From: Candidatus Daviesbacteria bacterium | GTDB lineage: Bacteria; Patescibacteriota; Microgenomatia; Daviesbacterales; UBA10151 | Length of the DNA: 64,000 nucleotides | NCBI GenBank assembly: GCA_030648645.1 | Contig: JAUSHL010000018.1 | Span: forward strand, 2,225 to 66,224 | Reading direction: 5' to 3' | In this document: positions 9,720-56,825 of the stretch, one piece after another | Numbering within the stretch: position 1 is the first letter of the stretch | How the letters are laid out: every line of letters begins with the position of its first letter | Made by a program: the position numbers and the translations under genes | Notes under the pieces: generated by a model | The model's input: the letters and a program-made list of their open reading frames with translations, nothing else | Database searches by the model: none | What the model was told of the DNA's origin: nothing

Positions 9720-12700
9720 TTGCTCATGGAGAAAATAGTTTTAGTTGATGGGAATGCTCTGCTTCATCGGGCCTATCATGCCACACCTCCACTTTCTACC
9801 TCCAAGGGTGAGCTAATCAATGCAGTTTTTGGTTTTACTTCCATGTTACTTAAAGCCTTAGATGAGTTAAAACCGGAATATATTGCGGTAACTTGGGATT
9901 TAAAGGCTAAAACTTTTCGGCATGAGGTCTTTGAGCAATATAAAGCCAAAAGAAAACCAATGGATGAGGGATTGGCTTCTCAATTTGACCGGGCTCATCA
10001 AATTATTGAAGCTTTTAATATTCCTCAGTTTAGTCTGATAGGATATGAGGCAGATGATCTAATAGGCACGCTTGCAACGCAAGCAGTGAAACTCGAAACT
10101 CGAAACTCGAAACTCGAAACGATCATTGTAACAGGGGATAGGGATTTAATGCAGTTAATAAGTGAGAGGGTAAAAATTTTCATGCCTAAAAAAACTTTAG
10201 CTGATGTTGGATTATATGGAGAAGAAGAATTTGCCTTAAAATATGGCTTTGCCCCCAAAAATTTAGTGGATTTTAAAGCCTTGGCAGGGGATCAGTCAGA
10301 TGGCATTCCGGGTGTGCCTAAAATTGGCGAAGTTTCTGCTACAAAATTAATTCAGGAATATCAAACTATTGAAAATATTTATAAAAATTTGGACAAAGTA
10401 CCCGAGAGAACCAGAAAATTATTGGAAGAAGGCAGAGAATCTGCATTTTTAAGTCATAAATTAGCCACTATTAATACAAATACACCTATTAAATTAGATT
10501 TACCAGCCTGCAAGGTGCATGATTTTGAGAGAGAAAAAGTGGTGGAATTATTTAATGAACTACAATTTAAGAGTTTAATTTCCAGAATTCCTAATATTCC
10601 CTCTGTCATTCCTGCCCGCTTCGCCATAGCTTCAGCGAGGCGAGCGAAAGCAGGAATCCAGAAAGCCTGGATCCCGGATCCCTTCGGCCTCGCTCAGGGC
10701 GGGCAAGTCCGGGATGACAATAGTGAGATTGCTTCTCCGGCTTTGTCGGATCGCAATGACAATAATATGACTGATAGTGATAAAAATCAAAACCAGGCTA
10801 CAACAGATTTAGACAAAGAAGTTGTACCAATTTTAGAAGAAATGTCTAAGATCGGAGTATTGGTAGATCTGGTGTTTTTGAGTAGGCTTAGTGAGGATCT
10901 GCATAGTAGATTAGATAAGATTGAACAGGAAATTTACTCAATTATAGGGCATCAGTGTAATCTTAACAGCCCAAAACAGTTACAAATTGTTCTTTTTGAT
11001 GAACTAAACTTACCGGTTGTAAAAAAGACTAAAACCGGACGGTCAACTGATGAAGAAACCCTGCTGGAGTTAAAAACAGCTCATCCTGTAGTTTCTTTAC
11101 TTTTACAATATAGAACTCTTTATAAATTAGTTTCTACTTATGTTGATGCTTTACCAAAAAGTGTGGGGGATGATGGCCGTGTCCATTCCACTTTTAATGT
11201 GGAAGGTGCTTCAACCGGTAGGATTACTTCCAATCAACCAAATTTACAAAATATTCCGGTTAAAGGGGAGATGGGTTCGGAAATCAGAAAAGCCTTCATT
11301 GCTCCCAAAGGGTCGACCAAAGGTCGATCGCCCTCTGGGCGAAAAGTTTTGTTGGGGGCCGATTACTCACAAATTGAATTGCGGATCCTTGCTGATCTGT
11401 CTCAGGATGAAAATCTGATCAAGGCATTTAAAGAGAATCAGGATATTCATACGCTTACTGCCGCCAAAATTTTTGAAGTTCCGCTGGATAAAGTAACAAA
11501 AGAGCAAAGAAATGTGGGAAAAACTATGAATTTTGCCACTTTGTATGGACAAGGACCTCATGCTCTGTCGCGTCAACTGGGAGTGGAATATAATACTGCA
11601 AAGCAATACATAGATGAGTATTTTGAGCAATTTCCTAAAATTAAAATTTGGAAGGAAAAAGTTTTAAAAGGAGCTTATGAGACAGGATATGCAGAAACTC
11701 TATGGGGGAGAAAAAGATATATTCCGGAGCTTAAAGCCGGCAATAAAATGATGCAGTCTTTTGGGGAAAGAGCAGCTATAAATCATCCGGTTCAGGGTTG
11801 TCTTCCCTGGGAAACAAAAATTCTGACTTCAAGCGGTTATATTCCTATAGGAGAGCTATATAGTGCAAAAGATAAGCCTTCTCTGGTTTGGGATGGGAGT
11901 GATTGGTGGTTTTATGAAGTGTTAGATAGAGGTGAAGCACAATTAGCGCAGATTAAATTTTCTAATGGACAGGTATTTAAATGTGATATAAGACACAAAG
12001 TTTTAACTGTTGATGAGAATGGCTATGAATGGAAAGAATTTTCGCAACTTAGGTCTGGGATGAAAGTATGTTTTAGTATGCCAACAGTTCACGAGTTCTC
12101 TTCTACACAGTTTCGCTTTAAACATACGTCGAACGCTCACAATGGGATTTCTTTAAATATTATTGCAGATAAGGAGTTATGGTACTGGTTAGGATATTAT
12201 ATTGGAGATGGATATCTACATAAACGTTGGAATAGAGCTTGGGCTTTTTCATTAACCTACTTTTTTGGAGAACACGAGAGCGAAAAACGGGATAATTGTA
12301 TAAAATTTTTTACTTCACTAGGTTTGCATCCTACGCAGAGAAAGACTACACATCGCCCTAAAGTTAAATTATCCACACGTTATTTGGTTACAGTGTACTC
12401 TCAGGGTTTTGGAAGGTTGTTTGAGGAGATAGGATTATTAGGTGGAAAAAACGCTCATACTAAACGTTTGCCTTCGCGTATCTTCAAAGAATCTTTAGAG
12501 AATCGTTGTGTTTTTATTAAGGGAATTATGGATTCTGATGGGTATGATGGAATAAAGGAAAACAATAATCCAAGTATTCATATTTGCCAAAGAGGATTGT
12601 TGCAAGAGATACAACTTTTATTAAAAACCGTAGGGACAGAAAGTCAGATTAGGGGACCTTATCTCTATAACGAAAAAATTTCATATCGTCTAGATATTCA

Positions 12701-13409
12701 CAGAAATGCTCTGGCACGGGCTTTACGTCAGGGTGAAATGTCGCGGTTTGACCGTTATTTAAATCGACTAACACCTCAATTTCTAGTACAGGAAGCTGTT
12801 TCTTTAGGTGGTCATTTACAAAAAACTCAATTTGCTACAGCTTCAGATTATGTGTTATATAGCCGATGGAAAAATGGAGGCTCCTCTTCTCTCTATTATT
12901 TTCAAACTTGGCTAAAACGTAATAACGTCATATTACAATCACCTGTTTATCATTTTAATGAAATTACGGAAATAGATATACTTGATCAGTTTGAAACAAC
13001 TTACACTTTAAGTGTTCCTGGGAGTCATAGATTTGATAGCGAAGGTGTTATTTCCAAAAATACAGCAGCTGATATGATAAAAAAAGCTATGGTGGAAATA
13101 AATAATCAGTTATCAGTTCTCAGTGGTCAGTCGTCAGTTTTTGGTCAATCAGTTGTCGGTTTGTCTGTAACTGGTAAACGGAAAACTGGAAAACTAAATT
13201 CCGAAAACCGAAAACAGAAAACTGATAACTGTAAATTAATCCTCCAGGTCCATGATGAATTATTGTTCGAGTGCAACGAGAACTCTGCAGAAGAACTGGG
13301 GAAAATGGTCAAAGAAAAAATGGAAAATGCCCTAAAATTATCTGTTCCTGTGATAGTAGATTTAAAAACAGGTCCAAATTGGGGAGAAATGAAGTCCTTG
13401 AAAATTTAG
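9720..13409 (+). CDS. polA: DNA polymerase I with an intein and several in-frame repeat insertions
   Basis: 5'-3' exonuclease N-terminus, polymerase motifs DYSQIELR, KTMNFATLYG, QVHDELLFE; extein junction INHPVQG|...|TAADMIKKAMV. Confidence 0.9.
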   Translation: MLMEKIVLVDGNALLHRAYHATPPLSTSKGELINAVFGFTSMLLKALDELKPEYIAVTWDLKAKTFRHEVFEQYKAKRKPMDEGLASQFDRAHQIIEAFNIPQFSLIGYEADDLIGTLATQAVKLETRNSKLETIIVTGDRDLMQLISERVKIFMPKKTLADVGLYGEEEFALKYGFAPKNLVDFKALAGDQSDGIPGVPKIGEVSATKLIQEYQTIENIYKNLDKVPERTRKLLEEGRESAFLSHKLATINTNTPIKLDLPACKVHDFEREKVVELFNELQFKSLISRIPNIPSVIPARFAIASARRAKAGIQKAWIPDPFGLAQGGQVRDDNSEIASPALSDRNDNNMTDSDKNQNQATTDLDKEVVPILEEMSKIGVLVDLVFLSRLSEDLHSRLDKIEQEIYSIIGHQCNLNSPKQLQIVLFDELNLPVVKKTKTGRSTDEETLLELKTAHPVVSLLLQYRTLYKLVSTYVDALPKSVGDDGRVHSTFNVEGASTGRITSNQPNLQNIPVKGEMGSEIRKAFIAPKGSTKGRSPSGRKVLLGADYSQIELRILADLSQDENLIKAFKENQDIHTLTAAKIFEVPLDKVTKEQRNVGKTMNFATLYGQGPHALSRQLGVEYNTAKQYIDEYFEQFPKIKIWKEKVLKGAYETGYAETLWGRKRYIPELKAGNKMMQSFGERAAINHPVQGCLPWETKILTSSGYIPIGELYSAKDKPSLVWDGSDWWFYEVLDRGEAQLAQIKFSNGQVFKCDIRHKVLTVDENGYEWKEFSQLRSGMKVCFSMPTVHEFSSTQFRFKHTSNAHNGISLNIIADKELWYWLGYYIGDGYLHKRWNRAWAFSLTYFFGEHESEKRDNCIKFFTSLGLHPTQRKTTHRPKVKLSTRYLVTVYSQGFGRLFEEIGLLGGKNAHTKRLPSRIFKESLENRCVFIKGIMDSDGYDGIKENNNPSIHICQRGLLQEIQLLLKTVGTESQIRGPYLYNEKISYRLDIHRNALARALRQGEMSRFDRYLNRLTPQFLVQEAVSLGGHLQKTQFATASDYVLYSRWKNGGSSSLYYFQTWLKRNNVILQSPVYHFNEITEIDILDQFETTYTLSVPGSHRFDSEGVISKNTAADMIKKAMVEINNQLSVLSGQSSVFGQSVVGLSVTGKRKTGKLNSENRKQKTDNCKLILQVHDELLFECNENSAEELGKMVKEKMENALKLSVPVIVDLKTGPNWGEMKSLKI
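10088..10120. repeat. (CTCGAAA)n heptanucleotide tandem repeat inside polA
   Basis: gaaactcgaaactcgaaactcgaaactcgaaac; encodes KLETRNSKLET; same heptamer at 50149-50172. Confidence 0.8.
10605..10718. repeat. GTCAT...GATGAC hairpin mini-repeat inserted in frame in polA
   Basis: gtcattcctgc...cccttcggcctcgctcagggcgggcaagtccgggatgac; near-identical copies at 16059-16108 and 29388-29477. Confidence 0.8.
11799..13061 (+). other. intein (421 aa) with LAGLIDADG homing endonuclease domain inside polA
   Basis: Starts with Cys after NHPVQG; block B-like DIRHKVLT; two LAGLIDADG-type motifs (LGYYIGDGY, IKGIMDSDGYDG); ends ...GVISKN followed by Thr, with extein resuming TAADMIKKAMV. Confidence 0.75.
13117..13232. 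repeat. low-complexity repeat insertion in polA (CAGTCGTCAG and GAAAAC motifs)
   Basis: Adds ~35 aa between the KKAMV helix and motif C; a related CAGTCGTCAG repeat occurs in recF at ~21995-22040. Confidence 0.45.
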
Positions 13410-15465: not shown

Positions 15466-15995
15466 TTTCTATATTTTTGACAAAGTAGATTTTAAGGACT
15501 ATCGTTAGGAGTATGGGAGAAATATTCCGCGTTATTGTTCCGGAGGGAGATGCATCTTTTCCTGCTTTACAAGAATTAAAACAAAAACTTCCTGGGTCAA
15601 CCAGAGTTAAAATTATAGAATCAGACAATAAAATTCCTGGGCAAACTCCTCATCGTTCATATCTTTTTCATTTTAGAGAATCCTCTGAAATTATTAATTA
15701 TGAAGTTAAAGAAATTCAATAGGGAACAGAGAAAAAATTCAAAAAAGAGAGCGGAAATTGTGCACATGCCTCATTTATTTTCCGGAGGAGAATCCAGTAA
15801 AAATAAAGCCAAAAGACTGGCATCAATTCTTCACAAAGTTCGAAAAAGTTAGAAATCATTTCAAAATCTAAGCCATATTGTCATCCTGAACTTGATTCAG
15901 GATCTATATAAACCAATTTAACTCGATGTTGCAATCCTTCGATTACACTCAGGATTGTACTGAGCTTGTCGAATGTACAACCGCCAGCTGGCGGT

Positions 15996-16058
15996 CTCGT
16001 TAAATGGTTTGAACCCAAAATTTCGATTAAAAGTTGCAGATTGGAGTATTTTGGGTAT
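15996..16058. repeat. 65-nt hairpin element (reverse-complement copy of TATACCCAAAATA...ATTTTGGGTTCAAACCATTT)
   Basis: Direct-orientation copies at 58122-58183 and 58881-58944. Confidence 0.7.
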
Positions 16059-16108
16059 AGATTCCGTGTCCCTTCGGCCTCGCTCAGGGCGGGCAAGCAC
16101 GGAATGAC
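16059..16108. repeat. GATTCCGTGTCCCTTCGGCCTCGCTCAGGGCGGGCAAGCACGGAATGAC mini-repeat
   Basis: Shares the CCCTTCGGCCTCGCTCAGGGCGGGCAAG core with 10605-10718 and 29388-29477. Confidence 0.8.
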
Positions 16109-16124
16109 AGTTTTGGAATAAAAT

Positions 16125-17534: not shown

Positions 17535-18704
17535 ATGAAAGTAGCCTTAGCACACGATTATCTCCGTGAGTACGGTGGTGCGGAACGTGTTCTTGAAACA
17601 ATTCATGAGATGTTTCCTGATGCTCCGGTTTATACTGCCTATTATAACCCTGAAAGCTTAGGGGTAAATGCTAAAAGGTTTGCCAGTTGGAATATCAAAA
17701 CCTCTTGGATGCAAAAAGTTCCTTTTGCCAATAAATTAATTTCCCCCTTTAGAATTTTTGCTCCTTTTATGTTTGAAACATTTGATTTTTCTGAATATGA
17801 TTTAGTCATTTCTTCCTCCTCGGCTGTTTATTTTGCCAAAGCAGTCTTAACAAAACCACATACTTTGCATCTAAGCTATATTCACACTCCTCCCAGATTT
17901 TTATATGGATATACAACTTCCTTTAATTACAAAAAAAATCCAATTACTCATATTTTAGGAGAAATAGTAAATCATATCTTACGAATTTATGATTTTAATG
18001 TTTCCCAAAGGCCGGATATTTTAATGGCCAATTCCAAAAATGTGCAGGCAAGAATCAAAAAATTTTATCGAAGAGATTCAGTAATTATTTATCCACCTGT
18101 CAATCTAAAAGAGTTTGTCATTCCTGCGAAAGCAGGAATCTATGGATCCCTGGTCAAGCCAGGGATGACAAATTCCAGGATGACAGATAAAGAGTATTTT
18201 CTTTCCTTAAATAGATTAGTGAGGGGGAAGGGGACAGAGATTGCTGTGGAAGCCTGTACAAAATTAAATTTGCCATTAAAAGTAGTAGGAATGGGTCCGG
18301 AACTTGTCCCACTTCGTTCTGTTGCACAGAACTACGTGGGATGTAAAAACATAGAATTTTTAGGCAATGTTTCTGATGAGGAAAGGGTAAAGTTATATGC
18401 TGGGGCCAAAGCCTTGATTGTAGCCTCAGAAGATGAGGATTTTGGAATTACTCCGGTGGAGGCACAAGCTGCCGGAACACCAGTAATAGCTTTAAAAGCC
18501 GGTGGATTTTTGGAAACCGTGGTGGCTGGAAAAACTGGAGAATTTTTTTCTGAACCAAATGCAGAGAATTTGATGGAAGTATTAAAAGATTTTGACCCTC
18601 AAAAATATAATCCTGAAGATTGTAGAAAACAGGCAGAAAAATTCTCGGAGGAGAGATTTAAAAAAGAATTGTTAGACTTGATTGAGAAAAATATAAAAAA
18701 ATAG
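17535..18704 (+). CDS. glycosyltransferase family 4 (GT1/GT4 fold)
   Basis: C-terminal EDFGITPVEAQAAGTPVIA motif; contains an in-frame mini-repeat at 18117-18186. Confidence 0.8.
   Translation: MKVALAHDYLREYGGAERVLETIHEMFPDAPVYTAYYNPESLGVNAKRFASWNIKTSWMQKVPFANKLISPFRIFAPFMFETFDFSEYDLVISSSSAVYFAKAVLTKPHTLHLSYIHTPPRFLYGYTTSFNYKKNPITHILGEIVNHILRIYDFNVSQRPDILMANSKNVQARIKKFYRRDSVIIYPPVNLKEFVIPAKAGIYGSLVKPGMTNSRMTDKEYFLSLNRLVRGKGTEIAVEACTKLNLPLKVVGMGPELVPLRSVAQNYVGCKNIEFLGNVSDEERVKLYAGAKALIVASEDEDFGITPVEAQAAGTPVIALKAGGFLETVVAGKTGEFFSEPNAENLMEVLKDFDPQKYNPEDCRKQAEKFSEERFKKELLDLIEKNIKK
18117..18186. repeat. GTCATTCCTGCGAAAGCAGGAATC...GGATGAC mini-repeat inside the GT4 gene
   Basis: Encodes VIPAKAGIYGSLVKPGMTNSRMTD; related copies at 29388 and 55755. 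Confidence 0.75.
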
Positions 18705-18706: not shown

Positions 18707-19672
18707 ATGCCGGAGTTACCTGAAGTAGAAACAATAAGAAGAGGTTTGGAAAAAAAGATTGTTGGATTGACAATTAAAAATCTACAGGTTTTTTATCCCA
18801 AAGGAGTACAATTTAACCCTGAGCTTGTCGAAGGCAAAAAAGTGGTGGGAGTTTGGAGAAGGGCTAAAATGTTGGGAATAGATCTGTCATTGCGAGGAGA
18901 GAAAACGACGAAGCAATCTAACAGTAAAGATCGCCACGCAGAGTCAACACTGAGATTGCTTCGCTCCGCTCGCAATGACACCGAAGTGATCGCGATGACA
19001 TTGTTATTTCATTTAAAAATGACCGGTCAATTAATTTATGTAGCGAGTAACGAGCAACGAGAAGCGAGATTGATTGGGGGGCATCCTACGCCAGACATGC
19101 GTGGAGACTTACCAAATAAAAGTACTGTGGCAGTTTTTGAATTTTCAAATGGATCCAAATTATATTTTAATGATCAACGTCGTTTTGGATGGATACGATT
19201 AAATTCGAAATTCGAAATTCGAAATTCGAAATTATTGCAGAAGTTAGGACCGGAACCATTTGATCCAAAATTTACCTGGGAAATTTTAAAAGTTAATTTA
19301 TTGAAGCATAAATCAATGCCGATTAAGGTTGCTATTATGGATCAGTCAGTGCTTTCCGGAATAGGCAATATTTATGCCTCAGAATCTTTATTTTTAGCTA
19401 AAATTGATCCCAGAAGAAAAGTAAATTCCTTATCTGATACAGAATTTAAAAAATTATATCAGGGAATTGCCGATTCTTTAAAACTTGCAATAGAAAAAGG
19501 TGGTTCAACCAGAGCTAATTTTGTTAATGTTGATGGGGAACGAGGATATTTTTTAGATTATGCTAATGTTTATGGAAAAGAAGGATATCCCTGTACAGGT
19601 TGTAAAGGAAAAGTAGAAAAAATTACTCAGGCAGGAAGAGGAACATATATGTGTCCCACTTGCCAGAAATGA
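18707..19672 (+). CDS. mutM: formamidopyrimidine-DNA glycosylase
   Basis: N-terminal PELPEVE, C-terminal zinc finger CTGCKGKV...CPTCQ; carries two repeat insertions. Confidence 0.85.
   Translation: MPELPEVETIRRGLEKKIVGLTIKNLQVFYPKGVQFNPELVEGKKVVGVWRRAKMLGIDLSLRGEKTTKQSNSKDRHAESTLRLLRSARNDTEVIAMTLLFHLKMTGQLIYVASNEQREARLIGGHPTPDMRGDLPNKSTVAVFEFSNGSKLYFNDQRRFGWIRLNSKFEIRNSKLLQKLGPEPFDPKFTWEILKVNLLKHKSMPIKVAIMDQSVLSGIGNIYASESLFLAKIDPRRKVNSLSDTEFKKLYQGIADSLKLAIEKGGSTRANFVNVDGERGYFLDYANVYGKEGYPCTGCKGKVEKITQAGRGTYMCPTCQK
18886..18999. repeat. GTCATTGCGAG...CTCGCAATGAC / GATGAC mini-repeat inserted in frame in mutM
   Basis: Encodes LSLRGEKTTKQSNSKDRHAESTLRLLRSARNDTEVIAMT; same family as 22926, 24584, 35604 and 48090. 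Confidence 0.8.
19201..19233. repeat. (AAATTCG)n heptanucleotide tandem repeat inside mutM
   Basis: aaattcgaaattcgaaattcgaaattcgaaatt; encodes NSKFEIRNSKL. Confidence 0.8.
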
Positions 19673-20366: not shown

Positions 20367-21782
20367 GTGTCCCTCCTTCGCACAAGGCTTCGGAAGGGCA
20401 AGCAAAATTTTATGGCGGAAAAAATTGGATTTTCTTCAGTAATTGCCAGTTCTGGATTTAGATATCTTTGGTTTAACCAAATTTTAGTTCAGTTAGCTTT
20501 AAATGCTCTAAATTTTACCCTGATTATTTGGGTATTCAAATTGATAGATAATAATTTATCAGTTTCGGCTTTAATGTTAGCAATTTATTTGCCGGCAGTA
20601 ATTTTTGGTATTTTTGCCGGAGTATTTGTTGATATTTTTGACAGACGAAAAATTATTTTATTGATTGATTTTTTGATTGCTATATCTTTTATCTTTTTCA
20701 TTTTTATTAAGGGTTCATTTATTTTAGTTTTAGTTTTAACTTTTATTATCAATACTTTAACTCAATTTTTTATGCCTTCAGAATCTTCGGCTATTCCTTT
20801 GCTTGTATCCAAAAAACAATTATTTTTGGCCAATTCTTTATTTTCTTTAACTTTATACGGAACTTTCATGCTTGGATTTACTTTGGCCGGACCAATTTTA
20901 AATCATTTTGGCATTAATACTATGTTTATCTTAGGGTCTTTGTCTTTACTGGTAGCATTTTTTATGGCCAGAAAATTACCTTCCATCAAAGCCACAACCA
21001 ACAGCAAAAAACTGATATCTTTTAAAGTCCTATTGAATCTGACTATCAAAGAAAGTAGAGAAACACTGGAATTTGTCAGGGGAAAATTGGAAGTTTCTTC
21101 GGCTATTTTACTGATGGCAGGTGTTCAGGCATTAATTGGGGCAATGGCGGTGGTGGTACCAGCTTATATGGAAAGAATTTTGTTAATACATGCCACCGAT
21201 TCATCTTACATTGTGGTTTTACCTTTAGGTGTAGGGATGGTGATTGGAGCTTTAGTTTTGGGGAAATGGTTTCATAAATTTTCCAGAAGAGGTGTAGTGG
21301 TTCCGGCAATTGTTGGAGCAGGGACAGTTTTATTACTGTTGGGAGTAATGCCGATTATTGCCCATTTGCTTCAGGCGGCAGATTTGCCTACTTATATAAC
21401 TAAACCCCGTTATTTCTTCAAAGCTCCCTCACTTTCCACGTTGTTTGCCATACTTGCATTTTTAGCAGGGATTTGTGCAGTATCAATCATTGTGCCCTGT
21501 CAAACAGTACTACAGGAACATACTACATTTAAAAATAGAGGCAAAATTTTTTCAGTTTTGGTAGTGGCAATGACAGCCTGTTCGGCCATCACGGCGGTAT
21601 TGGCCGGAGTTTTGTCTGATATTTTTGGAATTTTACCATTACTTATATCTTTGGGAATTTTGGTTATTGGAATAGGATATTTAGTGATGCGTCCACAAAA
21701 CTTTCTTAAAGAACATTGGCTACCATCTTCCATGAAAGAATTTTTAGGGTTAGGACATTGGAATAAGGCGGATGTTTCTTAA
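20367..21782 (+). CDS. MFS transporter
   Basis: About 12 predicted TM helices; MFS-like loop motifs; start possibly at the internal Met (MAEKIG). Confidence 0.65.
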   Translation: MSLLRTRLRKGKQNFMAEKIGFSSVIASSGFRYLWFNQILVQLALNALNFTLIIWVFKLIDNNLSVSALMLAIYLPAVIFGIFAGVFVDIFDRRKIILLIDFLIAISFIFFIFIKGSFILVLVLTFIINTLTQFFMPSESSAIPLLVSKKQLFLANSLFSLTLYGTFMLGFTLAGPILNHFGINTMFILGSLSLLVAFFMARKLPSIKATTNSKKLISFKVLLNLTIKESRETLEFVRGKLEVSSAILLMAGVQALIGAMAVVVPAYMERILLIHATDSSYIVVLPLGVGMVIGALVLGKWFHKFSRRGVVVPAIVGAGTVLLLLGVMPIIAHLLQAADLPTYITKPRYFFKAPSLSTLFAILAFLAGICAVSIIVPCQTVLQEHTTFKNRGKIFSVLVVAMTACSAITAVLAGVLSDIFGILPLLISLGILVIGIGYLVMRPQNFLKEHWLPSSMKEFLGLGHWNKADVS

Positions 21783-22935
21783 AAATCTTAAACTCACTAA
21801 TTTCAGGAATTTTTCTAAAGTAGATTTAGATTTTGGTAATGCTACACTTTTAGTGGGGAATAATGCCCAAGGAAAAACTAATCTTTTGGAATCAATTTAT
21901 TTTTTGGCAACCTCCAAATCTCCCAGAGCTGATAAAGATGTTCAATTAATTAAAGATGGGGAGGAATTTGTGAGAGTGGAAGGGGAAGTGGGAAACCAGT
22001 CGTCAGTCCGGCAGTTGCCGGATCGTCAGTCGTCAGAAAGTTCTTCGAATCTGAGATTCTCAGAATCGAATGATCTGATAGCTGAAGACTCTGTACTGAT
22101 GACTTCTCTGGAAATTTTTATGCAAAAAACTGCAGGATCTGAAAGATTGGAAAAAAGAACTAAGGTCAATGGAATTGGTAGAAGATCCACAGATTATATT
22201 GGCAATTTAGTGGTAATTCATTTTTCTCCGGAAGATATTAATTTGGTAACCGGTGCTCCGGCACTACGGCGTTGGCATTTGGATTTAACTTTGGCTCAAA
22301 TTGACAGGGATTATAAAAATGCTTTAAATACTTATCACACTTCTTTAATTTCCAAAAATAAAATCTTGAAAGGAATTAAAGAGGGGGTGGCCCGTGTTGA
22401 CGAGCTGGAGTTCTGGAATGGACAAATGGTTTTCTCCGGTAATTTAATTACCCAAAAAAGACAGGCATTTTTTAGTTTTCTCAATAGTAATGGAAGTGAG
22501 GGAAGCTTAGGAAATTTCCGGTTTATTTATGAGGAAAGTTTAATTTCGGAGAGTAGAATAAGGGAATATTTAGCCAGAGAAATAGCAGCAGGTAATTCTT
22601 TGGTTGGGCCTCACCGGGATGATTTTGTTTTTAAAATAGATAGTAAGGATTTGGAATATTTTGGTTCTCGCGGGGAACAAAGAACTGCAGTATTGGAATT
22701 AAAACTAGCAGAATTGCAGTTTATAAAACAATTTAAAAATGTTTTGCCAATACTACTTTTGGATGATGTTTTTTCAGAACTTGATACTGCCCACAGACAG
22801 CATGTGATTTCTGCAGTAGATGGTCAGCAAACAATAATTTCAGCAGTAGAAAATGAACAAATCCCAGAAAGTTTCCTAAAAAAAGTACAGGTGATTAACG
22901 TAGAAAAAGGAAAGTTAATCTCTGCGTCATCCTGA
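21772..22935 (+). CDS. recF: DNA replication and repair protein RecF
   Basis: Walker A GNNAQGKTN, LLLDDVFSELD; contains a CAGTCGTCAG-type in-frame insertion. Confidence 0.8.
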   Translation: MFLKNLKLTNFRNFSKVDLDFGNATLLVGNNAQGKTNLLESIYFLATSKSPRADKDVQLIKDGEEFVRVEGEVGNQSSVRQLPDRQSSESSSNLRFSESNDLIAEDSVLMTSLEIFMQKTAGSERLEKRTKVNGIGRRSTDYIGNLVVIHFSPEDINLVTGAPALRRWHLDLTLAQIDRDYKNALNTYHTSLISKNKILKGIKEGVARVDELEFWNGQMVFSGNLITQKRQAFFSFLNSNGSEGSLGNFRFIYEESLISESRIREYLAREIAAGNSLVGPHRDDFVFKIDSKDLEYFGSRGEQRTAVLELKLAELQFIKQFKNVLPILLLDDVFSELDTAHRQHVISAVDGQQTIISAVENEQIPESFLKKVQVINVEKGKLISASS

Positions 22936-23055
22936 ACTTTTTCTGTCATTGCGAGGAGTCTCCGACGAAGCAATCTAGGTTGGGTAATTATGAATTAGAT
23001 TGCCACAGGTCGAAGTCTCGACCTTCGCAATGACAAAAGAGATGCTCAGAATGAC
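22926..23055. repeat. cluster of GTCATCC / GTCATTGCGAG...AATGAC mini-repeats
   Basis: Overlaps the recF stop; three nested hairpin units. Confidence 0.75.
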
Positions 23056-23086: not shown

Positions 23087-23680
23087 TTAGTTGAACCTAA
23101 AGGTGGAAAGAATTTGATCAATCATTTTTAATTTTGCAGATGAAGTAGCACTAATTTGCAATTTTCCATCATCAAGACCTATCCAATAAGCTGTTTGCGA
23201 TTGGTTTTTGTTATTATTCTGTTGATCGACAAAATTTATTTTGGCTCCCGGTCGCTCACCAATCTTTAAATCTGAAATTTTTTGAATGTAAAGAAATTGG
23301 GATAATTTTTGTTGCGTACCTACCGGTGCCGTCACTTGCATATCTATTTGATTTGCTGGGATATATGAGATATCGATCAGATCATATTGTAAACTTGGTG
23401 AATCCATCCCGTTCTTGATATCTAACTTTTGGTCACTTAAATAGACTTCACTATCTCCAAGTGTCTGAATATACCAATTTGTTGGGTAATCAAATTGGTA
23501 GTTATATTTTTCATTGGTATATGTTTTCCAGTCAGTAGATTCCTCAGCACTAATTGGTGTAGGTTGAACAACTAATTGAGATACAGGTTTGGTTTGTTTT
23601 TGGTATAACAAATACCCACCAACTGCTATCACAGCTACCAAAACAATTACCAATAACGGTGCCAAGCCTTTTTGTTTCAT
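23087..23680 (-). CDS. secreted or membrane-anchored hypothetical protein (paralog of 24716-25360)
   Basis: N-terminal signal-anchor; shared YTNEKYNYQFDYP and C-terminal ILSTFRFN with the paralog. Confidence 0.5.
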   Translation of the reverse strand: MKQKGLAPLLVIVLVAVIAVGGYLLYQKQTKPVSQLVVQPTPISAEESTDWKTYTNEKYNYQFDYPTNWYIQTLGDSEVYLSDQKLDIKNGMDSPSLQYDLIDISYIPANQIDMQVTAPVGTQQKLSQFLYIQKISDLKIGERPGAKINFVDQQNNNKNQSQTAYWIGLDDGKLQISATSSAKLKMIDQILSTFRFN

Positions 23681-24583: not shown

Positions 24584-24713
24584 GTCAATGCGAGCGTAGC
24601 AAGAAGTTACCTTAAAAACTATCATGTCATCCTGAGGACTCGCCGCGGCGAGGACGTGAGGATCTTCCGATCTCGAAAGATTGCCACGGTCGCCTAGGCG
24701 ACCTCGCAATGAC
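24584..24713. repeat. cluster of GTCAATGCGAGCGTAGC / GTCATCCTGAGG / GATTGCCACGGTCGCC...CTCGCAATGAC mini-repeats
   Basis: Related copies at 25390-25426, 22926-23055 and 48090-48172. Confidence 0.75.
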
Positions 24714-24715: not shown

Positions 24716-25360
24716 TTAGGGGGTAAATTTAAAGGTGGAAAGAATTTGAATTAGTAAGCCTACGCACCGTCCAGTCCCTTTTGGATCTTCACAAGCTAGA
24801 TGGATAGATTCTTGCGGAGGACTACCAATAAAGATATTTATATCTGCCGAAGATCCAGTTTTATACGAATTAATATTAGAACCTGTAGGGAGTTTGAAGG
24901 AAGAAATATCAAAAGAACTCTCTGAATTTCCCTTCATTTCAGCATCAAGTTCCGTTTGTGACTTTGAAGTAATTACTCCAATTGCTAATCCTATACCTTC
25001 AGTTATTTTTCCATCAGGATCTACTTTAATATCAGGACTGAATAAAGCTAAACTATCTTCGTTATACCTTCTGTATTGATTAACCTGTAACTCATTTACT
25101 ATTTTAAAATCCTGAGGATACTTATAAGAAAAACCGTATTTATTTGAGGTATATGTTTTCCAGTTGGCGGTTTCGGCGGCGGAAGCAGAAGCTATTGGGC
25201 TTATAATTGGAGCAGAAGTGGGTTGAACAATTGGTTGAGAGATAACAACTGGTTTGGGTTGATTCTGATAAATTAAATATCCACCAACTGCCAAAGCTAT
25301 TAGGATAACAATTAAAATTGGAGCAAAACCCGCTTGGCGGACGGGTAAACCTTTTTGCAT
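24716..25360 (-). CDS. secreted or membrane-anchored hypothetical protein (paralog of 23087-23680)
   Basis: Signal-anchor, conserved WKTYT..KY motif, C-terminal ILSTFKF. Confidence 0.5.
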   Translation of the reverse strand: MQKGLPVRQAGFAPILIVILIALAVGGYLIYQNQPKPVVISQPIVQPTSAPIISPIASASAAETANWKTYTSNKYGFSYKYPQDFKIVNELQVNQYRRYNEDSLALFSPDIKVDPDGKITEGIGLAIGVITSKSQTELDAEMKGNSESSFDISSFKLPTGSNINSYKTGSSADINIFIGSPPQESIHLACEDPKGTGRCVGLLIQILSTFKFTP

Positions 25361-25389: not shown

Positions 25390-25426
25390 GATTGCCACGG
25401 TCGCTTAAGGCGACCTCGCAATGACA
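25390..25426. repeat. GATTGCCACGGTCGCTTAAGGCGACCTCGCAATGAC mini-repeat
   Basis: Near-identical to the unit at 24684-24713. Confidence 0.75.
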
Positions 25427-29082: not shown

Positions 29083-30903
29083 ATGATATTTGGTAAATTT
29101 GCGGAGTATTTGGAAAAATTAGAAACAACTTCTTCCAGATTATCTTTGATTGATATTTTAGCTGATCTTTTTTCTGAAGTTAAAGCAGATGAAATTGCTG
29201 AAGTGGTATATCTAATTCAGGGCAGAGTAGCTCCATTTTATGAACCAATTGAGATTGGGATGAGTGAAAAGTTAGTAGCAAGTGCAATTGCTCAAGCTTA
29301 TGGAGTTTCTAAAGAAGAAGTGTTGCAAGAATATAGCAAAGTGGGGGATTTGGGGAAGGTGACAGAGAAACTGGCGGGGCCTGCTATGTCATCCCTGCGA
29401 AAGCAGGGATCCATAAAGAATCCGGATGGATCCCGGATCCCTTCGGCCTCGCTCAGGGCGGGCAAGTCCGGGATGACAGTGGGAACGGTTTCTGAAACCT
29501 TATTGGAAATTGCCAAGATTTCTGGAAATGGGACTGTGGAAAAAAGAGTTAATCTTTTGTCTGATTTGTTAAAACAACTTGATCCAGTATCTGCCAAACA
29601 TTTAGTCAGAATTCCGATGGGAGCCTCCCGTCTTGGAGTTGGAGATCCCACAATCCTCGAAGCTTTTGCCCTCGCTAAATTGGGAGATAGAAAACATAGA
29701 AAAGTGTTGGAGGATGCTTACAATAAAACTTCTGATTTAGGAATTATTGGGCAGACTTTATGGAAAAGTGGAATAAAGGGGATTGAAAAATTGGATGTGG
29801 AGGTGGGAAGACCTTTAAGATCAGAGCTGACAGAAAGATTACCGGATGCAAAAACAATTTTGGAAAAAATGGGAGGCAGAGCTCATTGCCAACGGAAATT
29901 TGATGGATTTCGTGTACAAATCCATAAAAATGGGAATAATGTCAGATTATTTTCCAGAAATTTAGAAGAAACTACCCCAATGATGCCAGAGATTGTGGCA
30001 GGAGTATTAAGTCAGGTCAAAGCCAAAACTGCTATTTTGGACTCAGAAGCTCTGGCTTACAATCCTGATTCAGAGGAATTTTTACCTTTTCAGGAAACCA
30101 CTAAAAGGAGAAGAAAATATGATATTGAAGAAATGAGCAAAAAATTACCCCTGAAAGCTTTTGTTTTTGACATTATGTATCTTGATGGAAGATCGTTGGT
30201 CGGAGAATCGTTAGTCGAAAGAATGAAAAAATTAAAACAAGCAGTTTCAGGAGATGAAACCCTTATCCCTGAACCTGGGGTTTTTACAGATTCTGCAGAA
30301 AAAATCCAGGAACTTTTTGATGATGCTATTACCAAAGGGCTGGAAGGATTAATTGTTAAAAAACCTGATTCTAAATATGAAGCAGGAGCAAGGAATTTTA
30401 ATTGGGTAAAGCTAAAACGGCATAGTGCCGGGGAATTACACGACACCATTGATTGTGTAATTTTAGGATATATTTTTGGTAAAGGGAAAAGGTCTTCTTT
30501 TGGGGCAGGGTCACTCTTGGTTGGTGTTTATGATGAGAAAAAGGATATGTTTGTCACAGTTTCCAAAATTGGGACAGGACTTACAGATATAGAATGGAAA
30601 GAGGTACATAGGAGAGCTGATAAAATTTCTGTTGATAAAAAACCTGCCAGAGTTGATTCTGTGATAGTCCCTACAGTTTGGATTAAACCAGAGATTGTGA
30701 TAGAAGTTTTGGCAGATGAGATCACTAAATCTCCTACTCATACAGCAGGGAAGGTAGGAGATGAGCCTGGATTTGCCCTCAGATTTCCCAGATTGGTGAG
30801 GTTTAGAGCAGCTGACAAAAGACCTGAGGATGCCACAACTGTTCAGGAACTTTTAGAGATGTATAATATGCAATATGAGCATAAAAAAGAACAAAATAAG
30901 TAA
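29083..30903 (+). CDS. lig: ATP-dependent DNA ligase
   Basis: KxDG adenylation motif (QRKFDGFRVQIH), DNA-binding, adenylation and OB domains. The ORF opens at 28969 but that stretch overlaps the GGDEF gene, so the in-frame ATG at 29083 (MIFGKFAEYLEKLETTSSR) is preferred. Carries a mini-repeat insert at 29388-29477. Confidence 0.8.
   Translation: MIFGKFAEYLEKLETTSSRLSLIDILADLFSEVKADEIAEVVYLIQGRVAPFYEPIEIGMSEKLVASAIAQAYGVSKEEVLQEYSKVGDLGKVTEKLAGPAMSSLRKQGSIKNPDGSRIPSASLRAGKSGMTVGTVSETLLEIAKISGNGTVEKRVNLLSDLLKQLDPVSAKHLVRIPMGASRLGVGDPTILEAFALAKLGDRKHRKVLEDAYNKTSDLGIIGQTLWKSGIKGIEKLDVEVGRPLRSELTERLPDAKTILEKMGGRAHCQRKFDGFRVQIHKNGNNVRLFSRNLEETTPMMPEIVAGVLSQVKAKTAILDSEALAYNPDSEEFLPFQETTKRRRKYDIEEMSKKLPLKAFVFDIMYLDGRSLVGESLVERMKKLKQAVSGDETLIPEPGVFTDSAEKIQELFDDAITKGLEGLIVKKPDSKYEAGARNFNWVKLKRHSAGELHDTIDCVILGYIFGKGKRSSFGAGSLLVGVYDEKKDMFVTVSKIGTGLTDIEWKEVHRRADKISVDKKPARVDSVIVPTVWIKPEIVIEVLADEITKSPTHTAGKVGDEPGFALRFPRLVRFRAADKRPEDATTVQELLEMYNMQYEHKKEQNK
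29388..29477. repeat. GTCATCCCTGCGAAAGCAGGGATCC...GGGATGAC mini-repeat inserted in frame in the ligase
   Basis: Shares a 45-nt core with 10660-10718. Confidence 0.8.
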
Positions 30904-31589
30904 TGGCTACTAGTTATGAAATGTTGCGGCACATGTATACCCAGTTGGAAACAGGTATTAATGGTTTTGCTACGGATGACGATCGGTATACCGATCGTCG
31001 GTATGTGGATCTTGGTAGAAACAAAAAGGATAAGTTCTTAACTATATCAACTAGCGTAAGCCTTCTTTATTACCCCAATCCAAGTTACCGTCTCAATTTA
31101 AGTATTGCTTATAGCCCTAAGGTAAAAAGGGGTGGTTATGGTGACTTAGATAGCCTACCTCCCCATTTAAAGATGAGATTTCCGTTAATAGGTGTATTTG
31201 ACTTTGATTGTGATAGACCCGAGCAAGTAACTACTCCCTTTGGTGCTTTACCCAGGTATATTATTGGCTCAGATGATAAATTGTATACGATACAAAATTA
31301 TTATTTCCTAAATTTCCAAGGGCAAGCGGTAAAAGTTGAAGAAGTATCTCAAGCTCAAGGTGAGAACCAGACTTTAGAAGAGGCGCTTAATGATTTTGGA
31401 GATGAAGGAGATATTGTTAGAGTATCATTTTCTCCTAGAAGGAATGGTAAAGGTAGTTGGAGTGTAGTCGTCGATTTAAGAGGTGGAGATTTGGAAAAGC
31501 TCGGATTTTTGGCTAGTGAGATAGAAAACGGGCAATTCAAAAAAGTGACTTTGCAAGATCTGGGCTTGCGCTCAGATTTCCAAGATTAG
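30903..31589 (+). CDS. hypothetical protein (228 aa); start overlaps the ligase stop (TAATG); C-terminus runs into a ligase 3' fragment
   Basis: No family recognised. Confidence 0.5.
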   Translation: MATSYEMLRHMYTQLETGINGFATDDDRYTDRRYVDLGRNKKDKFLTISTSVSLLYYPNPSYRLNLSIAYSPKVKRGGYGDLDSLPPHLKMRFPLIGVFDFDCDRPEQVTTPFGALPRYIIGSDDKLYTIQNYYFLNFQGQAVKVEEVSQAQGENQTLEEALNDFGDEGDIVRVSFSPRRNGKGSWSVVVDLRGGDLEKLGFLASEIENGQFKKVTLQDLGLRSDFQD

Positions 31590-31678
31590 TTAGATTTAGA
31601 GAAGAAGATAAAAGACCAGCAGATGCTGCAACTGTTAGAGAGCTGGAGATGTATGAGCAACAATACAAAAAGAGCTAG
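31568..31678 (+). pseudogene. orphan duplicate of the DNA ligase 3' end (copy 2)
   Basis: Translates ALRFPRLVRFREEDKRPADAATVRELEMYEQQYKKS, matching the ligase C-terminus ALRFPRLVRFRAADKRPEDATTVQELLEMYNMQYEHKK. Confidence 0.7.
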
Positions 31679-34950: not shown

Positions 34951-35006
34951 ATTTTTCAGTTAACCTTGATTTCGCTGTTTTTTGAAATAAATGTTAATAT
35001 ACTTAT

Positions 35007-35603: not shown

Positions 35604-35699
35604 GTCATTGCGAGCGTAGCGAAGCAATCTGATCCTGGACAAGCCAGGATGACAGAAGAGATTGCTTCGTCGCAAGCTCCTCGCAATGACAGGGATGAC
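35604..35699. repeat. GTCATTGCGAGCGTAGCGAAGCAATC ... CTCGCAATGAC / GGATGAC mini-repeat cluster
   Basis: Palindromic units; same family as 18886, 22926 and 48090. Confidence 0.8.
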
Positions 35700-48089: not shown

Positions 48090-48172
48090 GTCATTGCGAA
48101 GCCACAAAGTGGCTGTGGCAATCTGCCAAAGTAGATTCTCACGTCCTCGCCACGGCGAGTCCTCAGAATGAC
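48090..48172. repeat. GTCATTGCGAAGCCACAAAGTGGCTGTGGCAATC ... GAGTCCTCAGAATGAC mini-repeat cluster
   Basis: Same family as 24584-24713. Confidence 0.75.
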
Positions 48173-48716
48173 AAAAAATGATATGAAAGCTTTTTTAAAA
48201 GAGATTAAATTTCCTTCAACTGAATATGCCTGTTTTCATAATTTAACTGAGGAAGTAAAAAAGGCTGTAAAAAAATCAAAAGTAGGGAATGGAATTGTAG
48301 TAGTAAATTCCAAGCACACTACTTTAACTATTGTAGTACAGGAAATTTCTGAACCAAATTTACTCAAAGATATGTTAAATCATGCTTTGCATCATGTTCC
48401 AACAGATAGTAGGGCCTGGGTTGCCAGAAAAAAAGATTTTAAACATCCCACAACTGATTATTCTCACAGGTGTCAGGATAATCCATTTTGTAATGAAATT
48501 GATGAGGATTATAACGCTCCCTCACACATTAGATCAATGCTTTATGGTCATCCTTCTGTTTTTATTCCCATTCAAAACGGCAAACCGGAACTGGGAAAAT
48601 ATCAGGAAATTGCAGCACTGGAATTTGATGGCAGAGATGGAACAGGTAAAAATGCCATCCGCCAAAGAACAGTCCAAATCTGGATTTATCCAATTGAGGA
48701 AGTTAAACTACTCTAG
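48168..48716 (+). CDS. YjbQ/UPF0047-family protein
   Basis: NSKHTTLTIVVQE and later conserved His segments. Confidence 0.55.
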   Translation: MTKNDMKAFLKEIKFPSTEYACFHNLTEEVKKAVKKSKVGNGIVVVNSKHTTLTIVVQEISEPNLLKDMLNHALHHVPTDSRAWVARKKDFKHPTTDYSHRCQDNPFCNEIDEDYNAPSHIRSMLYGHPSVFIPIQNGKPELGKYQEIAALEFDGRDGTGKNAIRQRTVQIWIYPIEEVKLL

Positions 48717-48937: not shown

Positions 48938-48977
48938 TTTAACACAAAATCACGCTATGGCGACAAATTGTGTTAAA
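48938..48977. repeat. type A spaced inverted repeat, third copy (TTTAACACAAAATCACGCTATGGCGACAAATTGTGTTAAA)
   Basis: Between the RHH ORF and gene 49036. Confidence 0.65.
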
Positions 48978-49035
48978 TATATTTTTACTATGGATTAGAT
49001 TTCCCGTGGATTAGAGATTGTCGCAAGTATAAAGA

Positions 49036-55093: not shown

Positions 55094-56825
55094 CTTCGTC
55101 GGGAAAATCTATCTTCCATCCTAACAGATTAAGTTGAGGATAGGAATTAATTTCTTTAATTTCCGTAAATTCTAAAAGATCTGCAAATAATTGATTATAA
55201 AAATTGGCAGTTACAGGAAAATCTTCGGCCAATCTTTGATGATTTGCAAATATTCTTCTGCTTTGAATTATAAAATAATCTGATTTTTCTAAATCTTCTT
55301 TTAATTTTTGTTGACTCAAAATATTTTCATCCAAATCATAAAAATTTAAAGATAGTCTTTTAAAATTTTCCGGAAGTGGAATATCAACCATGTTACCTTC
55401 TTCCAGAAAAACAGTTCCCGGAGTTAGATTTTGGGCAATCCAATTTGAAGCCTGAAGACGGACATCATTTTTTAAATAGATTGAGAAATAAGATAAGGTC
55501 CAAAGGATAGTAAGAATTAAGAATGAAGAATAAGCAAAGCTTGCGATCCGATGATCTTTAAGAATTAAGGAAAAATATTTATTAATTTTAAATTGAGAGA
55601 TTTTAAATAAAAGAAAGGCAGAAAAAATGGCAAAGAAAGGAAAAGTGGGGGAAATGAATCTGGTCCATTTGGCAAATAAAAAAGCATTGGATAAAAACAG
55701 AATTAAGAATGTAGAATTAAGAATTATGAATAAAAAGACAAGCGTCGTATTTTTGTCATTCCTGCGAAAGTCCTTCGATCCCGAGGGCCTCAGGACCGAG
55801 GGGCAGGAATCCAGATTATTGTATTCTGGATCCCGGGTTAAGCCCGGGATGACAGATAAAGGTGCGGGATGACAGTGACATTGACGAAAAATAGATAAGC
55901 ACATTGCTAGAAAACCTGCTATGCCAAAAACTAACAGAGCAGGGCCTAAAGCATATGGATAAATTTTTTCAAACTGAAATAAAACCGGAACAGTATTGAT
56001 AAATTGTCTGGTATAAAAAACCGGAATAGTGCCTATTGCCAGCGCGCTTTCATATTTAAAACTGGATAAAAAGCTGGAAAAATCTAAAAATAAATAGGGA
56101 TCAATTATAAATAAAGTAACTAAAATAATAAATAAACTTAGAATTATTCGGGAGATTATTTTTGGTATGGTCCGCCAGCTGGCGGATGGGGATGCAAGAA
56201 AAATTCCCAAAAGTATCGGCAGAAATAAAACAGCAGAGCTGATTTTAACTCCCAGTGCAAGTCCCAGAGAGGCAGAAGAAAGAATGAGGAATAAAGATTT
56301 TTTTTGTTTTACAAAATATAACAAAAAAGTTAAAGACAAAAAGATAAAAAATATTAAATTAGATTCCGGAGTTAAAAAATGAGCTTGTTGAATAAGCCCC
56401 GGAGTAAGGGCTACTAAAGCTGCTGCTAAAAGAGAGTATTTTTTATTAAAGAAAGTAAGGGAGATAAGGTAGATAAGGGGAATAGTGAGAGTGGAGAATA
56501 AAGCAGAATAAAATCTTCCAATTAAGAAAGGGGACAGGTTATAAGCAGAGCTTGCGATCTGTTGATCTAAGGTTACAAGTTGTAGTAATTGCTGAGTGAA
56601 GTAATTAAGATAGATAGAAAAAGTACCATAATTAAAAAAATGAGGGTTCATTTGATTGGGGAAACTTAATTGATTGGCAGAAATCACAATATAGTATTCA
56701 TCAGGGTGAGTAAATAGTCCCTGTCCCCAGTCTAATTTATAGAATCTCAGCACAGCACCGACAATCATGATTAAGGTTAAAGAAATAATTACCTTTTTGT
56801 TTTTCATAAAGTCTTTGATTATCAC
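55026..56825 (-). CDS. GT-C glycosyltransferase (family 39/83-like), second paralog, with an in-frame mini-repeat
   Basis: THPDEYYIV loop motif; repeat 55755-55873 encodes HCHPAPLSVIPGLTRDPEYNNLDSCPSVLRPSGSKDFRRNDKN. Confidence 0.6.
   Translation of the reverse strand: MIIKDFMKNKKVIISLTLIMIVGAVLRFYKLDWGQGLFTHPDEYYIVISANQLSFPNQMNPHFFNYGTFSIYLNYFTQQLLQLVTLDQQIASSAYNLSPFLIGRFYSALFSTLTIPLIYLISLTFFNKKYSLLAAALVALTPGLIQQAHFLTPESNLIFFIFLSLTFLLYFVKQKKSLFLILSSASLGLALGVKISSAVLFLPILLGIFLASPSASWRTIPKIISRIILSLFIILVTLFIIDPYLFLDFSSFLSSFKYESALAIGTIPVFYTRQFINTVPVLFQFEKIYPYALGPALLVFGIAGFLAMCLSIFRQCHCHPAPLSVIPGLTRDPEYNNLDSCPSVLRPSGSKDFRRNDKNTTLVFLFIILNSTFLILFLSNAFLFAKWTRFISPTFPFFAIFSAFLLFKISQFKINKYFSLILKDHRIASFAYSSFLILTILWTLSYFSIYLKNDVRLQASNWIAQNLTPGTVFLEEGNMVDIPLPENFKRLSLNFYDLDENILSQQKLKEDLEKSDYFIIQSRRIFANHQRLAEDFPVTANFYNQLFADLLEFTEIKEINSYPQLNLLGWKIDFPDEVAEETWSVFDHPVIRIFQKNVK
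55755..55873. repeat. GTCATTCCTGCGAAAG...GGGATGACAG...GGGATGACAG mini-repeat cluster inside the GT39 gene
   Basis: Family shared with 18117-18186 and 3088-3203. Confidence 0.8.

Follow-up and report, generated by a model that had tools for sequence, protein, structure and literature searches.

Hairpin repeats with a TGTC tag lie between genes and in frame within five genes of a Candidatus Daviesbacteria genome

A 64-kb window of contig JAUSHL010000018.1, from a metagenome-assembled genome (MAG) of Candidatus Daviesbacteria, harbors a set of short GC-rich palindromes that begin with GTCAT and end with ATGAC, and that are found in intergenic DNA as well as inside five genes, whose reading frames they leave intact. 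These repeats are very probably selfish hairpins of the CGTC-REP/NTS class, with intragenic copies filtered by selection down to in-frame, stop-free inserts in tolerant loops and linkers. Positions are those of the window, i.e. the whole stretch analyzed, and the labels L### and P#### denote related loci or contigs and related proteins, respectively, that were compared with it. The window has 33% GC and around 88% of it lies within open reading frames (ORFs) of at least 100 aa. Its nearest protein relatives belong to Daviesbacteria and other Microgenomates, i.e. to the Candidate Phyla Radiation (CPR), the best match of its Fpg in the genome collection being 67% identical.

The existence of a GTCAT...ATGAC palindrome family, put forward in the original prediction, was confirmed by the frequency of GTCATYSC, which occurs 28 times in both strands of the window versus 4.0 expected (maximum of 11 among 100 shuffles), even if the matches at 6460, 21567, 46290, 53792 and 54291 are apparently due to chance. 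In total, about 22 GC-rich hairpin units could be located at 13 places. The repeat segments have at least 60% GC and, as single-stranded DNA, fold more strongly than shuffled sequences, with z values from -2.0 to -7.5. Within what had been considered one family, at least two unit classes and a nested third motif were distinguished. A class-1 unit consists of TGTC, an 8-bp stem beginning with AT, a loop of 4 or 5 nt and a CCA or CTA tail. The 12 units obtained in a strict scan of the window all have T before GTC, which defines the TGTC tag (CGTC and TGTC are both present in relatives), and all have stems starting with AT, 8 bp long in 11 cases and 7 bp in one. Their loops are GAAA (2 units), CTTGA, CTTAA or CTTGT (5), or these same loops with 24-33 nt nested in them (5), and their tails CCA (7), CTA (4) or CAG (1). 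In relatives, loops of strict units have 5 nt in 17 cases, 4 nt in 12 and more in 9, and CCA is the commonest tail. The density of strict units is 1.9 per 10 kb in the window versus 0.28 per 10 kb over 1.37 Mb of relatives, where their distribution is patchy (16 of 133 related sources). A loose scan, for GTC followed by a stem of at least 6 bp, yielded 25 hairpins in the window and 14-31 in shuffles, with no excess, so that only the strict definition is informative. At Rfam gathering thresholds the sole match in the window was a tRNA, and the units correspond to no curated RNA family.

The second class (ATTGC-type, GTCATTGCGAG...GAAGCAATC), with about 10 representatives in the window, combines a 5-bp terminal stem with an inner stem. 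The third motif, approximately YCCTTCG(N6-20)CTCAGG, is nested within loops of class-1 units and is also free-standing in the spacer of the 15880-16108 pair. Units are mostly paired with their tags outward (GTCAT-hairpin-ATC ... GAT-hairpin-ATGAC), with 3-30 nt between the left unit, of the loop-4 kind, and the right one, of the loop-5 kind. Similarity between copies survived formal alignment, and the near-identical cores reported initially could be delimited as a 52-nt stretch showing 100% identity between polA (10668-10719) and the ligase gene (29427-29478) and 87% with intergenic DNA at 16058-16109, which corresponds to the unit at 16061-16108 (- strand), 87% identical to the polA/ligase right unit.

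CGTC-tagged REPs have been defined as hairpins with a tag that is often TGTC, an 8-9 bp stem starting with AT, a loop of 4 or 5 nt and a CCA tail, organized mostly as dimers, TGTC and CCTC being variants of the tag (Di Nocera, De Gregorio, Rocco, 2013, BMC Genomics 14:522; PMC3733652). Class-1 units agree with that definition in every anatomical feature, namely tag, stem, loop and tail. Since those authors equated CGTC-REPs with Neisseria dRS3 and with the Rickettsia palindromic elements RPE-4 and RPE-6 (CGTC-4 and CGTC-1, respectively), the likeness to Rickettsia elements already pointed out for this DNA is closer than was stated; the link is based on their statement on RPE-4/RPE-6. Their survey also described intragenic, in-frame CGTC-REPs in several phyla, many of them in DNA synthesis and repair genes including those for DNA polymerase I and a ligase (PMC3733652). 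The class has more recently been renamed Ssn-related motifs (SRM), and the Neisseria representative, NTS (CGTCATTCCCGCGMAVGCGGGAATCYRG), was reported to be a target of the protein SsnA, which binds it and cuts close to it only when the DNA is single-stranded (Chenal et al., 2025, Nat Commun 16:2388; PMC11893778). The GT4 unit at 18117-18140 differs from the NTS core in 2 of 24 positions, which amount to one compensatory stem pair, and a 24-nt hairpin pattern nearly identical to NTS is present in more than 120 unrelated contigs of a viral collection, with 40-71% GC.

Composites of these units interrupt polA, a GT4 glycosyltransferase gene, fpg/mutM, an ATP-dependent DNA ligase gene and a GT39/PMT-like glycosyltransferase gene (Table 1). 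As had been anticipated, all five segments are open in the frame of the host gene and have conserved Pfam domains on either side, while each insert has just 1-3 open frames out of six; an example of the predicted peptide across an insert junction is ...FVIPAKAGIYGSL... The description of the host genes as essential is fair for polA and the ligase gene, and would be an assumption for the two glycosyltransferases. The intragenic share is 5 of the 13 places, though 88% of the DNA is coding. The shared 52 nt read in different frames, as WIPDPFGLAQGGQVRDD in polA and GSRIPSASLRAGKSGMT in the ligase, indicating that what is conserved is the DNA and not the peptide.

Comparison with orthologs identified these segments as insertions rather than conserved linkers in the five genes, since at every site many orthologs, or the closest insert-free ones, lack the segment. 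In the case of polA, it is absent from the closest relative, P0361 (62% identity); the product has no 3'-5' exonuclease-like domain (Taq residues 285-429), and according to the Taq alignment the insert makes up 52 of 71 linker residues. The inter-domain linker of GT4 has 31 aa, versus a baseline of 12-14 aa in many relatives, and the fpg site is occupied in 25 related loci by a turn of only 4-5 aa between WRRAKMLGID and TLLFHLKMTG. Ligase orthologs are mostly 575-580 aa long and without the segment, versus 606 aa here, and 21 of 25 GT39 orthologs have nothing at the insert site. With respect to location, the polA and GT4 inserts are in linkers, the ligase site corresponds, in an alignment with the Sulfolobus enzyme, to a loop of its DNA-binding domain, the GT39 insert is between hydrophobic stretches, and in an AlphaFold2 model of Fpg the insert forms the tip of a beta-hairpin, flanked by strands 55-64 and 95-102, and is modelled with low confidence (parts with pLDDT <50). 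The Fpg, polA, GT4 and GT39 positions speak for a surface location.

Extra sequence at the edge of the loop is found in the polA, GT39, ligase and 16061 units, and whole units are located inside other elements at 18954-18979, 22945-23034 and 35632-35653. The same protein loops are also used repeatedly. The Fpg turn houses ATTGC-type dimers in the window, L152 and L165, NTS-type dimers in L161 and L170, another GTCAT dimer in L133, and palindromes without the GTCAT tag in L126, L137, L131, L144, L147, L155, L157 and L167, with junctions that vary by a few nucleotides among lineages; the ligase, GT4 and GT39 sites likewise carry different inserts in different lineages. This diversity of junctions and families at one site argues against each insert having arisen only once. 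Both the fpg and the GT4 sites are empty in L213. In L211 and L212, fpg contains a 72-nt dimer, and the window has that dimer plus one more unit in its right loop, while GT4 contains a different dimer, GTCATTCTGG...CCAGGATGAC, of which the window retains the right end only (CCAGGATGACAGAT), behind a newer dimer. These states show that inserts are inherited, eroded, hit again and replaced. An assembly artefact could be ruled out, similar in-frame inserts being present in many independent assemblies. Several of the fpg alleles that appear empty (L141, L146, L158, L139) end in ..GGAATGAC, ..AGAATGAC or ..ATATGAC, immediately ahead of the conserved T-L-L codons; such short alleles may be footprints of deleted elements rather than sites that were never occupied.

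A candidate partner enzyme was found in relatives. The Daviesbacteria-like contig L145 encodes a 95-aa GIY-YIG protein (Pfam PF01541, E = 2.4e-12) similar (E = 1.4e-31) to that of L034, a viral-collection contig with a hairpin-flanked GIY-YIG gene. The search returned 4387 homologs, those with a named source belonging to Levy-, Gottesman- and Curtissbacteria and Microgenomates, and many of them are on contigs of <2 kb. In L145, L201, L202, L205 and L209 the upstream flank of the gene consists of (C/T)GTCAT-stem-4-nt loop-stem-ATC, and the stop codon is directly followed by stem-loop-stem-ATGAC, with a loop of 5 nt in L201, L202 and L205 and of 4 nt in L145 and L209. This is the layout of the ends of the window dimers. 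SsnA is a GIY-YIG protein of 94 aa, and its gene is typically found in an NTS-ssnA-NTS arrangement (PMC11893778). Residues Y8, Y18 and E65 of the Microgenomates protein align by position with Y6, Y17 and E64, which were mutated in SsnA, and the nearest solved structure is UPF0213 BH0048 (E = 1e-4); the protein resembles Ssn.

The cassette layout and the nesting pattern lead us to propose, tentatively, that a Ssn-type nuclease could move the units via single-stranded DNA, with hairpin loops as preferred targets. The window dimers look like non-autonomous, miniature copies of a hairpin-ssn-hairpin cassette in which the GIY-YIG gene is missing, and would spread as DNA through single-stranded intermediates in which hairpins form. 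A Ssn-type nuclease encoded elsewhere in the genome would nick beside the tag and host repair or recombination would complete the insertion, the loops of existing hairpins apparently being favored landing sites. A copy landing in a gene would persist only if it kept the frame, was free of stops and lay in a tolerant surface loop or inter-domain linker, and would be translated as a disordered excursion; deletion decay, further hits or replacement would follow. Taking together the nature of the repeats and this mode of spread, we regard it as a reasonably probable explanation of the data. A bolder version seems unlikely to us at present, namely that the dimers truly are miniatures of ssn cassettes and Ssn the mobilizing enzyme of an unrecognized class of single-stranded-DNA elements that favor extruded hairpin loops and repeatedly seed surface loops in CPR core proteins. 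If it were true, an ssn-driven element would be a steady source of protein length variation in gene-dense CPR genomes.

Several facts weigh against assigning the repeats to this class or their movement to Ssn. The ATTGC-type units, with their terminal stem of only 5 bp, fit the class more poorly, and the literal published SRM pattern has a sole match in the window, at 55854 (- strand), the remaining units giving none; the pattern is too tight for this lineage, whose units were instead judged by their anatomy and by comparison with the NTS core. The elements, usually flanked by T on the left and A on the right, show no target-site duplication. Searches of the window by motif, with a YhbQ-like probe (of approximate sequence) and with the Microgenomates protein revealed no GIY-YIG ORF, and the CPR DNA sampled, 1.93 Mb in all, yielded a single ssn gene; at such a frequency, absence from 64 kb says little. 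As for the enzyme, all that has been demonstrated for Ssn is cleavage of single-stranded DNA and a limiting effect on transformation in Neisseria; it is not known to transpose or copy DNA, and its published cut lies around 3 nt upstream of the NTS (28 nt) instead of coinciding exactly with the T/GTCAT boundary of the window (PMC11893778). Finally, the same loops also house palindromes without GTCAT, which suggests that loop tolerance or another hairpin-making process also contributes.

This last point would be expected if no transposition took place and tolerant loops acquired their hairpins by local formation or exchange, through template switching, slippage and gene conversion between copies, the GTCAT family being only the commonest product. 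Unrelated palindromes and short tandem repeats do occupy the Fpg and GT4 loops of other lineages, and the GT4 element has a new interior next to an unchanged right junction, as would result from recombination between copies. However, local generation cannot repeatedly yield the same sequence, and the element ends are sharp and conserved, two unlinked genes share identical 52-nt cores, with a third copy at 87%, and the NTS-like 24-nt hairpin recurs in the unrelated viral-collection contigs, so that we see a purely local origin as unlikely. That the units are REPs or REPINs moved by a tyrosine transposase of the IS200/IS605 type (RAYT), the mechanism put forward for GTAG-tagged REPs, is in our opinion improbable. 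They do recall that system in being short tagged hairpins arranged as inverted dimers, in their dependence on single-stranded hairpins and in the lack of target duplication, and borrowing of such enzymes by CGTC REPs was left open by Di Nocera et al. (PMC3733652), but the tag is TGTC/CGTC and not GTAG, and the gene flanked by units in five Microgenomates loci encodes a predicted GIY-YIG nuclease. Neither the window nor the flanks examined showed a transposase-like ORF flanked by units, and in 2013 neither a dedicated transposase for CGTC-REPs nor a RAYT gene flanked by CGTC units was found (PMC3733652).

It could also be argued that the units are kept for a host function, such as an Ssn-dependent limit on recombination of incoming single-stranded DNA, transcription termination or mRNA stabilization, intragenic copies being side effects. 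NTS and SsnA lower transformation of N. meningitidis around 5-fold (PMC11893778), several intergenic copies (22926, 24584) are located directly past stop codons, as reported for REPs (PMC3733652), and DNA repair genes are among the hosts here as in the 2013 survey. On the other hand, presence varies among close relatives, old copies decay by deletion and abundance is patchy, all of which argues against a conserved role at any given site; we therefore give this explanation a small but real chance, and it is compatible with the one we favor, i.e. selfish hairpins possibly moved by Ssn. That the inserted peptides are themselves selected modules, acting as functional linkers or interaction loops, appears highly improbable. 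All five inserts are open in frame and some have been inherited across orthologs with 74-81% identity, but identical DNA serves as coding sequence in different frames and from either strand, many orthologs do without the insert, the peptides of close orthologs are wholly different and that of Fpg is modelled with low confidence.

Table 1. Positions of the hairpin units and composites, and of the nested motif, in the window.
Feature	Position	Strand	Characteristics
polA composite	10605-10760		156 nt, 52 aa (aa 296-347); linker between 5'-nuclease and polymerase domains
polA left unit	10605-10657	+	TGTC, stem ATTCCTGC, GAAA loop with 30 nt nested
polA right unit	10671-10718	-	stem ATCCCGGA, 29-nt loop
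polA extra unit	10727-10760	-	ATTGC-type
GT4 composite	18117-18186		aa 195-218; linker between two domains
GT4 left unit	18117-18140	+	
GT4 right unit	18146-18169	-	loop CTTGA, tail CCA
GT4 relic	18175-18186		CCAGGATGACAG; remnant (right end) of an older element that close relatives retain complete
fpg/mutM composite	18886-18999		aa 60-98; tip of beta-hairpin
fpg left unit	18886-18918		ATTGC type
fpg outer right unit	18929-18939 + 18988-18999		split; further right unit, 18954-18979, nested in its loop
Ligase composite	29388-29477		aa 140-170 of 644-aa ORF; loop in N-terminal DNA-binding domain
Ligase left unit	29388-29410	+	loop GAAA
Ligase right unit	29430-29477	-	identical to polA copy
GT39 composite	55755-55873		gene on - strand; aa 318-357; loop between two hydrophobic, presumably transmembrane stretches; trailing GGGATGAC relic
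GT39 left unit	55755-55810	+	33 nt nested in GAAA loop
GT39 right unit	55830-55853	-	loop CTTAA, tail CCA
5'-truncated dimer	3160-3203		intergenic; clear unit 3180-3203 (-), stem ATTCCGGG, loop CTTGA
Outward-tagged pair	15880-16108		intergenic; units 15880-15903 (+) and 16061-16108 (-); 157-nt spacer with other small palindromes
Nested element	22926-23055		outer inverted ends GTCATCCTGA / TCAGAATGAC around ATTGC-type dimer 22945-23034
Three-unit composite	24584-24713		intergenic; directly past stop codon of ORF 24716-25360 (-)
Single ATTGC-type unit	25390-25426	-	GATTGCCACGGTCGC..GCGACCTCGCAATGAC; upstream of ORF 24716-25360
ATTGC-type dimer	35604-35699		intergenic, z = -7.5; class-1 unit 35632-35653 (-) in central loop; trailing GGGATGAC
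Dimer	48090-48172		intergenic; terminal AGAATGAC
CCTTCG...CTCAGG motif	10616-10645, 10679-10702, 29438-29461, 16069-16092, 55775-55802, 15935-15965		also in GT4 inserts of L211/L212

The sequences at the sites listed in the original prediction read as described there, but the polA insert, of 52 aa, extends as far as 10760 owing to a further unit at 10727-10760, an additional unit was recognized at 15880-15903, and the sole clear unit within 3088-3203 is that at 3180-3203, the remaining part consisting of a 5'-truncated dimer and other short repeats. In two cases elements provide gene punctuation: the TGA stop codon (22933-22935) of the RecF/SMC_N-type ORF 21772-22935 is supplied by GTCATCCTGA, and the first ATG (48168-48170) of the UPF0047 ORF (48168-48716) by the element end AGAATGAC. 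The ORFs 23087-23680 and 24716-25360 (both on the - strand), each directly adjoining hairpin composites (22926-23055 the former; 24584-24713 and 25390-25426 the latter), are paralogs (family D10) that have about 200 aa each and share 72% identity along 67 nt, and the one tested had no Pfam match.

Two of the genes with inserts have further peculiarities. An intein with a LAGLIDADG homing-endonuclease domain is also present in polA (9720-13409), at approximately 11799-13100 (Pfam Intein_splicing, aa 739-1114; LAGLIDADG_3, aa 932-1002), PolA similarity ending at ...INHPVQG/C; polA thus bears two kinds of selfish insert. The C-terminal motif of the ligase, ALRFPRLVRFR..DK, occurs in three copies (30767-30843, 31560-31636 and 32369-32402; families D7 and D9) spaced by around 793 nt, indicating that two tandem downstream ORFs (30903-31589 and the next one) share the C-terminal region of the ligase. 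In the ligase ortholog P0223, a spurious N-terminal extension (MPHFARNDK...) is read from an element of the kind described here.

Other repeats were also detected. Intergenic DNA at 34827-34955 (129 nt, at least 60% GC, no Rfam match) is of the type GGTCCTG..CCCGTCCGATGTCCTC.., which recurs in frame in Fpg of L131/L144 and in the ligase of P0122/P0123, with peptides like GPAARQPHSTSS, and represents a second, GTCAT-less family of GC-rich inserts. Within the RecF/SMC_N-type ORF, 21972-22041 is a palindrome of GTCGTCAG repeats (CAGTCGTCAGTCCGGCAGTTGCCGGATCGTCAGTCGTCAG) and probably a sixth intragenic insert in the window, of a different family; the GTCGTCAG motif family also occupies the Fpg loop in L126/L137 and the GT4 linker in L123, L133, L137 and L147. 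A 14-nt palindrome, CCGCCAGCTGGCGG, appears at 15975-15988 and again at 56172-56185, inside GT39, where it encodes ...SASWRT... Lastly, a 45-nt inverted repeat, TTAACACAA..GTCGCYATGGCGMSA..TTGTGTTAA, is present at 5590-5634, 6343-6387 and 48939-48983 with 78-82% identity (family D6), and may act as operator or terminator or represent another small element.

In-frame insertion of such repeats was already described between 2000 and 2013 in other phyla, and a likely partner enzyme in 2025. What is new here is the CPR host, the high share of intragenic copies, the repeated hits on the same loops by different elements, the nesting and the replacement in place; literature searches pairing CPR with palindromic elements returned nothing relevant. 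The CGTC-REP/NTS hairpins, probably along with a Ssn nuclease, are thereby extended to this radiation. In a genome with almost no intergenic space many copies end up in genes, where orthologs reveal gain, loss, nesting and replacement, and this constitutes a natural test of the idea, raised but untried in the Ssn paper, that hairpin-ssn-hairpin is an insertion-sequence-like unit (PMC11893778). For those annotating CPR genomes there is also reason for caution: the inserts inflate protein lengths and yield spurious N- or C-terminal extensions, and they probably break assemblies too, judging from the number of ssn homologs on very short contigs.

With regard to other known systems, a classical MITE would share the inverted GTCAT/ATGAC ends, while its target-site duplication has no counterpart here. 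REPIN/RAYT systems, based on GTAG-tagged REPs, are also inverted doublets of tagged hairpins that resemble the ends of a small gene cassette; they differ in the tag, which is TGTC in our case, and in the associated gene, a predicted GIY-YIG nuclease instead of a Y1 transposase. Among the Rickettsia palindromic elements, attributed to Ogata et al. in 2000 and 2002, RPE-1 is said to be about 150 bp long and to encode a conserved peptide. In both bacteria palindromes lie in frame in unrelated housekeeping genes, at surface-compatible positions, and their presence varies between relatives. The units described here, however, are modular, 23-55 nt long and read in several frames, and the host is a free-living or epibiotic CPR bacterium, whereas Rickettsia is an obligate intracellular alphaproteobacterium. 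With CGTC-REPs they have in common the TGTC tag, the stem starting with AT, the 4/5-nt loop, the CCA-type tail, the inverted dimers (as seen in the window) and the in-frame copies in DNA synthesis and repair genes. They differ in that CPR/Patescibacteria are not among the five phyla listed for that class (PMC3733652), in the extra loop-nested sequence of many units, in the high intragenic share (5/13) and in the ATTGC-type unit, with its bipartite stem, which falls outside the four described families. As for Neisseria NTS/SRM, the intragenic share of NTS in N. meningitidis is only 2%, the window has no ssn gene and CPR are unmentioned in that work, where NTS hairpin loops could be replaced or extended without loss of cleavage (PMC11893778). 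Nevertheless, the unit at 18117-18140 departs from the NTS core by a single compensatory pair, and the 95-aa GIY-YIG gene of related Microgenomates is flanked by hairpins as in NTS-ssnA-NTS.

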